Source: a virus
Length of the DNA: 64,000 nucleotides
IMG/VR virus record: IMGVR_UViG_3300027996_000026
Span: 2,116 to 66,115 of that record
Reading direction: 5' to 3' (one strand)
Shown: positions 20,771 to 56,933 of the stretch, in pieces
Layout of the letters: each line of letters starts with the position of its first letter
How positions within the stretch are numbered: position 1 is the first letter of the stretch
Translations under genes and position numbers: made by a program
The notes under the pieces: model-generated
What the model saw: the letters and a program-made list of their open reading frames with translations, nothing else
The model's database searches: none
What the model was told of the DNA's origin: nothing

Positions 20771-21601
20771 TTAACTTCATGTATTTGTACTTGGAAAAGA
20801 TCTTCATGTTCACCATATAATTCTTAATGCTCAAGCTGCACCATTTCAATGAGTAGTATTGCTATCGTTACCAGCTCATCATCCTCAGTATGAACCTCCA
20901 TTAGAATATGCTGCATTACCATCTGCTCAATTACTTCATCAAGAACCTCATCCTCAACCATATCAATCTCAAGTAGATGCTGTACCACCAGATCCACTAG
21001 TTCATTCTCATAGTATTCAGACTCATCATCCTCATCATCAACAATCTGATATTCATCATCCACTTCAACCTCAAGCTGCTCATCATGTTCAGTTTCATCA
21101 AGTTGAACCTCTATTACTTCAAGCTCATCAATTTCAAGAATATCATCAAGCTCATCCTCAACCAGTACCATAATCTGAGTTCTTAGTACCATTACCACCA
21201 TTTCATCATCAATCTCAAGTATGACTTCATCATACTCACGCTATACTATCTGTAGATCAACCAGTACCTCAATATCAACATACTGTTGCTGTACTAATAA
21301 GGTAAGAATTTCAACCACTTCAAGCTGTTCAGTTATTAATTCTTGCTCATCCTCATCATACTACAATAGTATAATTACTTCAAGGTGTTACTGATATATT
21401 ATTTTTATATCAAAGTCATCCTCATCAACCACTAGCTGAACCAGTGCTTGTATAAGTACCTCCTCAACCTCAACCTACAGCAACTACACAAATACTAGTT
21501 ACTCAAACTGGACAAGTCCATATCGCATTTGATGTATATATTTGTTCTCAATAAGGTATATCTGTTTGTAGATTCTGACTATGAAATAATTGCCTATTCA
21601 T
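20771..21601 (-). CDS. Glycine-rich tail-associated protein (276 aa)
   Basis: WTCPVGVTSICVVAVGGGGGG..GALRIIWGTGRSFPSTNT. Dozens of TGA codons interleaved with GGT/GGA. Confidence 0.85.
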
Positions 21602-52897: not shown

Positions 52898-53884
52898 TTA
52901 ATTCTGTGTACTATTCTTTATGATCTCTCATAACTCTATACTTAATTCATCAAAAAAATTTTTATTTTTTCCGATATATTCATAAAGCTCCTCTTTATTC
53001 TTAGCAACTTGCTCTCATTTAATTTGATATCTACCTGTGATCATTCAATACTTAATACCATATTTAATGAAATCCTCAACCTTATCTATACCTACTCAAT
53101 ACATTATATTAAACTCAGCCCTCTTAAATGGTGCTGAAACTTTATTCTTTATAACATGGATGTTCGTAGGTGTACCAATATTCTCTGTCTTTGTATCTCA
53201 TTTTAATTGCCCCTTCTCTGTACTAGTTCTACCAACTCTAATTCTCTGACTCGCAGCAAATTTAGTTCATAATCATCCAGTCGTAACTTCATTACTCCCA
53301 AACATCGCTACAGTCTGCCTAATCTGATTTATCAAGATCAATGTACAATTATTCTTATTCAAGACTCATGTCCACATCCTTAACGCCTGATTCATCAGCT
53401 TCGCTTGAGTCATCACACTAGGATCGCCACTAGAGCCTTCTAACTCTTTTTTAGGTATCATCATAGCCACGCTGTCTAAAACAATCAATCTGACGCATCA
53501 TGATTCTGCTAACATCTTAACAATGTCTACTGCCTGCTCTCAATACTCTGGTTGCTGGAATACTAACTTCTCTAAATCTATACCTATATCCTCAGCATAT
53601 CCAGGATCAAATGCATGCTCCATATCTACAAATGCTGCTACATCTCATTTCTTCTGGACCTCATGTATCGCATGCAACGCTATAGTAGTTTTACCAGAAC
53701 TCTCCATACCAAATAACTCCACTATCCTTCCATCTGCATATCATCCCCCCAATGCTTCATCTATCGCAAAACATCACGAACTCGTAACAGGTATATCCCT
53801 CTTACTAGCATCTAAATAATTCGTAGTACCTGCACCAAACTTTGTATTAATCGCTGCTATCGCTGCTTCCAATGTCTTGCTCAT
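52898..53884 (-). CDS. recA: RecA recombinase (328 aa)
   Basis: [57 protein letters not shown]. Confidence 0.95.
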
Positions 53885-54215: not shown

Positions 54216-54336
54216 TTTATTTTTTTTATGTCTATACTTTACCTGGTGATTAGTAGATAAAATGGAAAGGGGTACTCCTATACTATACTACTACTTGGGA
54301 CATATATACCCCCCCTTCGACAGCAGCAGCATCAGC

Positions 54337-54756
54337 TTTTTATTTGTTTGTTTTTTAGTTTTGTTTTTATTTTGTTTTTTTATTTTATTTTTTTAATGTG
54401 TTGTGTGTATTTGTTTGTTTGTATTAGGCGAGGGTTGGCTTTGGGATAGGGTTTGTTGTTGTGTTGTTGTGTGTGTGTTGTTGTTGTTTGTTGTTGTTGT
54501 TGATTGTTTGTTGTATGTATGTATAGTAGTGTTTGTGGTTGTGGTTTTGTGGTTGTTGTTTTGTGGTTGTGGTATTGTAGTGTTGGCTTGGTAGTGGGAA
54601 GGAGAGGTTATAGTTGAGGAGTAGTTTTATATGTTATGGTGTTTTTGTTTGTGTGGTTTTTTGTTTTTTGTTTTTTGTTTTTTTTGTTTTTTTATTTATT
54701 AGTATTATATGTATATATAGTTATTATATATATATATTATAATATTTTTATATATT
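54337..54756. other. G/T-rich tract with only 3 C in 420 nt
   Basis: Counted directly: C at 54429, 54439 and 54587. Confidence 0.9.
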
Positions 54757-54800
54757 CTAATATATATAGTATAATTATATATAATAGTAATTAGGGCGAA

Positions 54801-54884
54801 AATAAAGAGCTATTTTCTGAGTGGGAGATTAATAACAAAGGATTGTTATTATGGTATCTCTCATCAGATGACTAGCTCTTTATT
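54801..54884. other. 84-nt rod-like hairpin
   Basis: aataaagagcta/tagctctttatt, tctga/tcaga, gagat/atctc, taataacaa/ttgttatta. Confidence 0.85.
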
Positions 54885-55461
54885 GTTCTTGTTTTTTGAT
54901 GGTTTTAGTTTTGATTAAATCTATACTTATAGTATATGGATTTAATAGGAGAAAGCAAACTTTAGTTTGACTTTCTTTTGCGACTCGATTCTGGTTAAGC
55001 ATAGAACTTATTCTAGTTCATTAGTTTTAGTATTGCAATTAGTAGGATTTTTGTCGGATAGATTTCTGGGAGGTTATTACTGGAGCATAGCTCTTACCTT
55101 AATTAATGTGTTTCTTTTTCTGGACTCTTCTAGTTATGTTTCGTAGGTGCTACATTCAGTAGAGGATGGCGTTGTATGACACTAGGTCTCGTGTGGTTAG
55201 CTTTAGCTTTATTAGGCTTAGGGCTGGCTTTGGGATCTTGTAGAATAATCTACAAGTAATTAATAGCTATTTGTGTATAAGCTATAATTGATATGAATCA
55301 CCATAGTAATAGTGATGCTATATTGTTTATTCTAAATAGTTTCATAATGTAATTTTAATAATAAATATAATTGAACATATATATAATGTACAACTCGCTG
55401 AGCTGTATCTGATATATACATATGTTCAAAGAAATATTTTATATAATGTATCTTAGTACAC

Positions 55462-55785
55462 TTATTTATTTTCTTGAGCTTCTTTATATTTCTCTCAAGT
55501 ATATATTCCTGTATCAGATAATTCTTCATCTGATAATGTATCTATATCCCACGTATCTGTGGGATTAAGTAATTCTCATTTAGCCATTCTGGCTGCTTTC
55601 TCTTTAGAGATAAATGGTTCTTCTCAAATAACTTTTATATCAAAGAATTGTTTTACGTAATCATACTTACTCTTAATATATAATAAGTGTGATACTGATT
55701 CTCTATTCATATGATTGTCTATATCTATTCATCTATGTGAATATTCTATAATCTCATATGGTATTCTTATTGGTAGTTTAGACAT
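55462..55785 (-). CDS. Hypothetical protein (107 aa)
   Basis: Open ORF under table 25. Confidence 0.55.
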
Positions 55786-55964
55786 AATAATTTAATTAAT
55801 AATAAAATAGTTCAGAAGAATATTTTATATTGTGCATTTAAATGCGTTATAAGAGATTTAAATAGTAATGACTAATGTCTTATCCTATTATTATCTTCCG
55901 ATTAAAATAGAGTTAGCTATCTATGATAGATAACGAATTAGGCGAGGGCTGGCTTTGGGATATT

Positions 55965-56127
55965 GTAATCTAATCAAATTAATTTAATTAGTTTTGAAAT
56001 AGGATATACAATATAGTGACCTTGTTGTAACTACATTAAGTAATTACATTTCAACTTGTAGTTGGTAACGGGCAGTCACGATTGTATATACTATGATAAA
56101 CTAATTAAATTAATTTGATTAGATTAC
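55965..56127. other. 163-nt rod-like hairpin with a perfect 30-bp outer stem
   Basis: 55965-55994 is the exact reverse complement of 56098-56127, with nested inner stems. Confidence 0.9.
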
Positions 56128-56190: not shown

Positions 56191-56230
56191 AAAAAAAAAG
56201 AGTAAGACATTATAGTCTTACACTTTTTTT
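56191..56230. terminator. Intrinsic terminator
   Basis: A-run, gtaagac-attata-gtcttac, T-run. Confidence 0.65.
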
Positions 56231-56407
56231 ATTCTATTACTCAACTGTTTGTTTTGATAGCTTTAGCTATCTTGCTTTGTGATATACTTCTGTACTCACT
56301 TCAAGCTGAAGCATCATATGCTTTAGTAACTCTTTTTAATTTATGCATTGTAATCTTATTACTAATATAAAATAATAAAAGCTTAGAATTTAATCTAAGC
56401 TTTTATA

Positions 56408-56788: not shown

Positions 56789-56933
56789 ATAGATTAAGAA
56801 ATAAAAATAAGGAAGGATATTACTCTTCCATAAGAATATTTTATATTATGTATTTCAAGTACACAATTAATTTCAAGTACACAAGTCTCTGGATATTATT
56901 TATTATACCTCTTATAGATCTTTGTAGACTGTA

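Follow-up and report, generated by a model that had tools for sequence, protein, structure and literature searches.

The stretch of DNA considered here, which we call the window, comprises 64,000 nucleotides (bases 2116-66115) of the 66,648-bp IMG/VR virus record IMGVR_UViG_3300027996_000026, and it belongs to a marine phage in which TGA is recoded. The two ends of the record (bases 1-155 and 66494-66648) overlap by about 155 nt with a single mismatch, so we take the genome to be a complete circular assembly, even though IMG/VR lists the record as linear. Long open reading frames (ORFs) are seen only when TGA is read through, nearly all of them on the minus strand, and TGA accounts for about 6% of codons, which fits a role in encoding glycine (table 25). 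Transcription runs from high to low coordinates, and in that direction a series of small ORFs and lysis genes is followed by a 2.5-kb gap and then by recA (52898-53884), downstream of which come a giant RNA polymerase (RNAP) of 4,191 aa, TerL, the portal, the major capsid protein, a primase-helicase and an SbcC-like gene. We refer to the 2.5-kb gap as the seam: it is mostly non-coding, the upstream operon terminates there, and the block of recA, giant RNAP and structural genes starts there. Our searches found no tRNA or tmRNA, while Rfam 15 gave no match in the window at the gathering threshold and, with an E-value threshold, no more than weak terminator-like matches in the seam.

Read along the gene strand, the seam begins with a 126-aa ORF and two terminators, at 56375-56406 (minus strand) and, in the form of a terminator-like, bidirectional hairpin, at 56202-56221, which together end the upstream operon. 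A 163-nt palindrome with perfect 30-bp outer arms (55965-56127) comes next, adjoining the third copy of a GC-rich motif, and beyond this lie an AT-rich motif (P_AT2) and a 107-aa ORF that looks like a real protein. The middle of the seam runs from a further AT-rich motif (P_AT3) through a 31-aa hydrophobic ORF (55250-55345, minus strand), which stops 13 nt before motif copy 2, and a hairpin, CTTGTAG-AATAAT-CTACAAG (55238-55257), to copy 2 itself and then to Block A, a non-coding stretch of some 230 nt of unique sequence (54979-55209). The first arm of that hairpin resembles the start of the palindrome arm beside copy 3 at 27 of 31 nt. The final part contains a long hairpin (54800-54885), preceded by an A-run and followed by a T-run and hence terminator-like both ways, then a (TA)n run, a tract that is G-less and CA-rich on the gene strand (54337-54756, near-C-free on the plus strand, where it is followed by the (TA)n), motif copy 1, an A-rich stretch, the non-coding Block B (54263-54335; gene strand ...GGGGGGGTATATATGTCCCAAGTAGTAGTATAGTATAGGAGTACCCC), about 380 nt more and finally recA. 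On the plus strand, no ORF of convincing coding quality was found downstream of any motif copy.

The motif itself is 25 letters long, ATTAGGC(G|TT)AGGG(Y)TGGCTTTGGGAT, and its three near-identical copies in one orientation, which the sequence-only reading had picked out, are all on the plus strand: copy 1 at 54423-54448 (ending at 54447 or 54448; ATTAGGCGAGGGTTGGCTTTGGGATA), copy 2 at 55211-55236 (ATTAGGCTTAGGGCTGGCTTTGGGAT) and copy 3 at 55937-55962 (ending at 55961 or 55962; ATTAGGCGAGGGCTGGCTTTGGGATA). A single base (T or C) separates copies 1 and 3, and copy 2 carries TT in place of G; the spacing between copies is 725-789 nt, with 788 nt from copy 1 to copy 2. Copy 1 is embedded in the C-less, GT-rich tract, copy 2 has Block A on one side and the hairpin with its 7-bp stem on the other, and copy 3 lies 3 nt from the palindrome. 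The same reading had noticed no further copies in the window, and this holds for the entire 66,648-bp record on both strands: a whole-genome scan recovered the three copies only and nothing on the opposite strand, tolerating as many as six errors in a fuzzy search brought no others, and 9-mers such as CTTTGGGAT are found only within the three. Dinucleotide shuffles predict 0.00 matches, the recurrence being clearly non-random, and the motif has a G+C content of 56% in a genome of 27%. It is asymmetric rather than palindromic, and on the gene-sense strand it is built of CCyAA(A)GCC units, with CCCAAAG, CCCTAAG and CCTAAT units present. The flanks of the copies are unrelated, with no residual homology beyond about 10 nt, except that copies 2 and 3 share roughly ten more bases, TTGTAnAnnTAATC, which form the first arm of the adjoining structure in each case: a hairpin of 20 nt beside copy 2 and, beside copy 3, the 163-nt palindrome.

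Two weaker relatives of the motif occur in the same region and on the same strand. A degenerate fourth site (54585-54602; GGCTTGGTAGTGGGAAGG) has the TTGGCTT-GG core in common with the copies, and a partial motif, ATTAGGGCGA, stands at 54791-54800, immediately 5' of the long hairpin, just as had been noted previously. The pattern (G2+ N1-5)x4 occurs on the plus strand just four times in the whole genome, in the three copies and in the fourth site; the canonical G3+ quadruplex pattern is absent from the motif, and the two-tetrad pattern is present in all copies.

Several familiar identities for such an element find no foothold here. The earlier impression that the copies have no sigma70 likeness stands, in that no predicted sigma70-type site (-35 and -10 hexamers with 16-18-nt spacing) overlaps any of them. 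With regard to intrinsic termination, the motif contains neither a hairpin nor a U-run, and the terminators that we found sit elsewhere. Taken by itself, the motif has no folding advantage over shuffled sequence. An N4-type promoter hairpin (5-7-bp stem, 3-nt loop) is absent within the motif, and hairpins adjoin it instead. A coding role was discarded since the reading frames differ from copy to copy. As for an array of origin iterons, an AT-rich stretch is present, but the copies are 725-789 nt apart and the neighbouring ORFs that were scanned included no recognisable initiator gene. An exact-motif scan of IMG/VR yielded six single matches, all of them chance occurrences in unrelated, GC-richer contigs.

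The small ORFs of this region have a motif of their own. An AT-rich sequence, CA(T/C)AATATAAAATATTCTT, precedes three consecutive small ORFs on the minus strand: P_AT1 (CATAATATAAAATATTCTTATG; 56829-56850) lies 41 nt before the ATG of the 126-aa ORF, P_AT2 (CACAATATAAAATATTCTTCTG; 55813-55834) 28 nt before that of the 107-aa ORF, and P_AT3, a weaker copy (55427-55448), 82 nt before that of the 31-aa hydrophobic ORF. A related phage, G001, has its own AT-rich motif, ACACAACTACTAAAAATTTTATGG, in three copies (L034 6915, 7736 and 8122) that stand 39, 35 and 82 nt before three small ORFs. These matched distances (41, 28 and 82 nt versus 39, 35 and 82 nt) make the AT-rich motif the better promoter candidate for the small genes. 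We regard its copies as candidates for early promoters, each genome having three of them, the number also found in N4. Immediately upstream of P_AT1, at 56852-56886 of the window on the minus strand, there is also a tandem direct repeat, TTGTGTACTTGAAAT x2, that looks like an operator.

Relatives for comparison were identified in IMG/VR via TerL, whose relatives form a family at 53-65% identity; IMG/VR contains just two of these phages, G001 (64 kb, TerL 58% identical) and G002 (67 kb, TerL 36% identical). A further contig, G003, duplicates part of G001 almost exactly and is thus no independent evidence. The one relative with alignable DNA is G001. Other routes to relatives were much less productive: a RecA-based locus search returned 20 phages, all of standard code and unrelated, and was set aside, locus searches with a 496-aa protein and with the lysozyme found nothing, and an alignment of giant-protein homologues against IMG/VR gave no match. 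Likewise, there was no true match among the 600 candidate stretches listed in each of two metagenome scans, no relative of the RNAP core in the GenBank phage collection, and no relative in GTDB genomes either by the conserved DNA block or by TerL.

Synteny is kept in G001, in which TerL is preceded, at a distance of about 17 kb, by a recA-like gene containing in-frame TGA codons, and upstream of that gene there is a 2.2-kb gap with an equally strong strand asymmetry. From 55209 down to 54221, the gap in the window aligns with that of G001 at 71% identity over 1035 columns (E = 1e-124). Across this kilobase or so, nucleotide identity is 71-81%, with Blocks A and B falling within 77-90% (Block A, 81% over 209 nt; Block B, 77-87%), as compared with 72.6% for TerL-portal and 74% for the capsid gene, and the proteins flanking the seam are far less similar (RecA 36%, RNAP core 31%, and no match for the small ORFs). 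The seam is among the best-conserved DNA common to the two phages, and is their best-conserved non-coding DNA. Coding capacity was rejected as a reason for the conservation of Block A on account of many 1-nt indels relative to G001. We also set aside a structured RNA: the consensus fold is better on the plus strand, but folding z-scores are close to zero on both strands, and from this we judge the strand difference to be compositional only, reflecting richness in G and U. G001 also has a hairpin at the place of the long hairpin and the same tract devoid of one base, together with a 45-aa ORF (L034 8227-8362) in the position of the 31-aa ORF, the two sequences not being alignable. The 163-nt palindrome has no counterpart there.

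It is precisely at the edge of copy 2 that homology with G001 sets in, and the window and G001 agree in having 788 nt between the borders that correspond to copies 1 and 2. The motif sequence is another matter, since its 17-mer core, with up to three mismatches, is absent from both G001 and G002, and 36 kb of G001 scanned by local alignment gave background-level scores and no repeated equivalent. What stands in G001 at the copy 2 homology edge is a single-copy, C-rich 25-mer, ATCCTTCCCCTACCCGAACCTAAAT. A second element, CCTAAGCCAAC, occurs at just two sites in G001, both in its G-less tract: L034 9245, which is closer to recA, lines up with copy 1, ambiguously owing to the low complexity of the tract, and the other (L034 9122) is a candidate counterpart of the fourth site in a tract whose complexity is too low for firm column alignment. 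In the same 36 kb, four-G-tract patterns occur three times on the antisense strand, all of them in the homologous seam. A purine-rich AAGGAAGAC repeat was dropped as a functional counterpart, for it occurs in G001 at background frequency.

G002 has no nucleotide homology to the seam, and carries a repeat of its own with an exact 28-nt C-rich core, CCATCCTCCCCGACCACCACCCTAGTCT (33 of 35 nt over the full repeat), which is present in two copies in the whole 67-kb genome, on one strand and 803 nt apart. The first of these lies 17 nt after a small membrane-protein ORF of 59 aa (L043 4166-4342; not alignable in sequence with the 31-aa ORF), much as copy 2 in the window lies 13 nt after the hydrophobic ORF, so that in all three phages a small hydrophobic ORF (31, 45 or 59 aa) directly precedes a C-rich repeat. 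All versions also have common gene-strand ends, with ATCC at the start and CCTA(A/G) at the end. From these sequence comparisons, the motif appears to be conserved in architecture and not in sequence across the window, G001 and G002, and the expectation that it would be conserved in related phages is hence borne out for the arrangement and fails for the letters. Copies that are the same within a genome, different between genomes and fixed in position represent the pattern that one would expect of sites co-evolving with a trans-acting recognition protein. Between the G002 repeats (L043 4400-5120) lie two sigma70-like sequences, a near-consensus TTGCAA-N16-TATAAT just after the first copy and TTGACA-N17-TAATGT, as well as three gene-strand terminators of the hairpin-plus-T-run kind, an arrangement that suggests several short non-coding transcripts. 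Block B of the window contains GGGGGGGTATATATGTCCCAAGTAGTAG, and a similar sequence, GGGGGGTATATGTGG, is found in the G002 seam (L043 5703).

Among characterised phages, T7 offers a close parallel. When copy 2, read on the gene strand, is aligned with T7 nt 210-235, within the short-repeat array that borders the terminal repeat, 22 of 26 columns agree, and this is the best match in the T7 genome; in the reverse search with the T7 segment, the three copies are the best matches in the present genome; and none of 120 shuffled motifs reached the T7 score, a statistic that overstates significance, T7 having been singled out for comparison beforehand and not by a search. In T7, the short repeats known as SRL and SRR, CCTAAAG-type heptamers, flank the terminal repeat and the concatemer junction, and the motif shares with them its CCyAA(A)GCC units, its place on the gene-sense strand in a non-coding seam of a co-directional map, its flanking of a segment in one orientation, and the nearby inverted repeats and promoters. 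Unlike the motif, which takes the form of three isolated 25-mers of two units each at 725-789 nt, the T7 repeats form dense arrays, with about a dozen heptamers per side at 12-14-nt spacing around a 160-bp repeat. T7 is unrelated to this phage, differing in polymerase type and host, and any link would be one of convergence or chance. Dunn and Studier are said to have found the role of the T7 repeats unclear in 1983. We treat the resemblance as a lead, and not as membership of the T7 class, because the comparison was chosen after the fact and because the T7 repeats are dense arrays with an unsettled role. N4 promoters provide another point of reference, being asymmetric elements of about 23-26 nt, few in number and in one orientation, in a phage with its own polymerase; N4 has exactly three promoter copies, near one genome end. 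In contrast to them, the motif is not ahead of ORFs and has no internal hairpin. The seam also recalls intergenic regions g004-g006 of phi14:2, a crAss-like phage whose virion carries a two-barrel RNAP; these too are non-coding stretches on the kilobase scale that a single small gene interrupts. These regions are long and highly transcribed; as a source of a similar motif they were rejected, with no GC-rich repeat and no sequence similarity.

Taken from the sequence evidence, the motif is probably a protein-recognition site, and the conserved non-coding module to which it belongs is of greater note than the motif by itself. There are three near-identical, non-palindromic copies in the same orientation with unrelated flanks and none elsewhere in the genome; these lie between transcription units and not ahead of ORFs, the small ORFs having their own AT-rich motif; and the seam is homologous in G001 at a distance where the neighbouring proteins have diverged much further. 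In addition, G002 has its own exact repeat at a spacing of 803 nt, close to the 788 nt of the window and G001, G-tract clusters are confined to these positions, the T7 match is reciprocal, and a large palindrome and hairpins adjoin the copies. We would therefore like to propose, tentatively and as something that we hold to be possible but still short of probable, that the copies are lineage-specific recognition sites bounding a genome-seam module that is used in end formation or packaging. The copies would be cis-acting sites for a phage-encoded, sequence-specific DNA-binding factor, and would delimit a conserved non-coding module at the point where terminators close the co-directional gene map and recA opens it again; we do not regard them as gene promoters. 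The seam would hold the physical genome ends and, by analogy with the T7 short repeats, the copies might act in genome maturation, that is, in end formation, packaging or coupled replication. Some considerations run against this proposal: the record is a circular assembly; G001, the sole relative with alignable DNA, lacks a repeated equivalent; copies 725-789 nt apart are widely separated for sites bound cooperatively; and our search identified neither a small terminase subunit nor another binding protein. Typing of the TerL family did not point to any particular packaging mode. The sequence-only reading had suggested a recognition sequence either for the giant RNAP or for terminase. The notion of a sequence-specific site fares well, given near-identical asymmetric copies, unrelated flanks and counterparts in relatives; the promoter option is weakened, and the terminase or genome-end option is a candidate that gains some support from the seam position, the spacing of about 790-800 nt and, by analogy, the T7 short-repeat match.

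A promoter for a phage-specific RNAP, whether the giant virion enzyme or a factor-modified polymerase, is the main alternative, and one that we find somewhat doubtful. On the gene strand, copy 3 would serve the unit of the 107-aa gene, copy 1 the leader of the recA operon and copy 2 a non-coding Block A transcript of about 415 nt reaching to the long hairpin, and the onset of G001 homology at the edge of copy 2 would make that transcript a tidy unit. On the plus strand, the copies would instead give three antisense or non-coding RNAs, and copies 1 and 3 are each followed within 270-450 nt by a hairpin and T-run. The size, asymmetry and mutual identity of the copies are typical of phage-RNAP promoters, each copy comes just after the hairpin or terminator of the preceding unit, and a motif that differs between lineages would suit RNAP cores that are only 31% identical. 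GC-richness also has a precedent, for one of the two-barrel RNAPs of P23-45 uses a GC-rich promoter, and phi14:2 makes abundant early long non-coding RNAs from its long intergenic regions. However, those early phi14:2 transcripts have no common upstream motif, nor has a promoter consensus been recognised for the crAss-like enzyme gp66. The known promoters of virion two-barrel RNAPs, among them those of phiKZ and AR9, are AT-rich. Moreover, the plus strand offers no convincing ORF after any copy, the gene-strand ORFs already have the P_AT motif, and in G002, whose repeat occurs in two exact copies, a near-consensus sigma70-type promoter follows the first copy and three gene-strand terminators lie between the two. 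G001 provides weak single counterparts only.

It is also worth asking whether what matters is the composition or structure of these sites rather than their letters, as in an element of a replication origin or of a long RNA. Here, plus-strand G tracts with two-tetrad G-quadruplex potential, the GT-rich tract and the (TA)n run would stabilise an R-loop or a stalled complex, or else the C-rich, G-poor islands of the gene-strand RNA could be Rho-loading sites. The confinement of four-G-tract patterns to the copies and the fourth site, and in G001 to the seam, would fit such a scheme, as would a strongly positive GC skew, an AT-rich stretch adjoining the tract and the retention in G001 of G/C-rich islands at the motif positions in spite of the altered sequence. 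Yet identity over 25-28 nt within a genome, as seen in both the window and G002, goes far beyond what structure or composition would need, the G runs are short (GG or GGG), neither the motif nor Block A differs in folding energy from shuffled controls, and no initiator gene was recognised nearby, the primase-helicase being some 50 kb away; we think this explanation unlikely. More improbable again, in our estimation, is that the copies have no function of their own. Recombination or gene conversion would then have duplicated a short GC-rich stretch, not long ago, in spacer free of constraint, or the copies would be a small selfish GC cluster of the type seen in AT-rich organelle genomes. The restriction of the copies to non-coding DNA, the lack of copy 3 and the palindrome in G001 and the loss of the motif sequence there could all be accommodated in that way. 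Recent copying sits poorly with flanks that share nothing beyond about 10 nt, and an unconstrained spacer would hardly be among the best-conserved DNA of two phages, nor would one expect the distant G002 to have an independent repeat on the same strand, after a small membrane ORF and at a spacing of about 800 nt. A small share of the probability we assign to none of these readings.

To return to the recognition sites that we propose at the genome seam, a broader and more doubtful extension, which we put forward as speculation, is that the 0.8-kb module is a previously undescribed genome-end or replication-start device of marine phages that combine TGA-glycine recoding with a giant virion RNAP. 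Its parts would be a conserved unique-sequence block, a long hairpin, a (TA)n run and a tract of 300-400 nt without one base. Direct repeats on either side, the same throughout one genome and different from one genome to the next, may co-evolve with a cutting or loading protein. If this were true, injection of the polymerase could be coupled to the first DNA entering the cell. We know of no account of how transcription starts, how replication proceeds or how the genome is cut in phages of candidate-phyla bacteria with the table-25 code, nor, to our knowledge, is there a recognition sequence for any crAss-type virion polymerase. Since the seam carries the only strongly GC-rich repeats of the genome, it is an obvious place for genome ends, an origin and early control, and the repeats furnish a defined 25-nt probe for binding or cleavage by the phage terminase and polymerase. 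Co-variation of repeat and protein across the roughly 15 protein-level relatives, if found, would identify the partner without any need to culture the host.

Two additional features of the genome deserve mention. An SbcC-like subunit of a palindrome-cutting nuclease is encoded at 992-2506 of the window (minus strand), and the 163-nt palindrome with its perfect arms lies close to recA; it is conceivable that the two together provide deliberate breaks for recombination-dependent replication. Finally, TGA occurs in frame 65 times in a 276-aa ORF at 20771-21601 (minus strand), suggesting a collagen-like protein of glycine repeats that is largely TGA-encoded.
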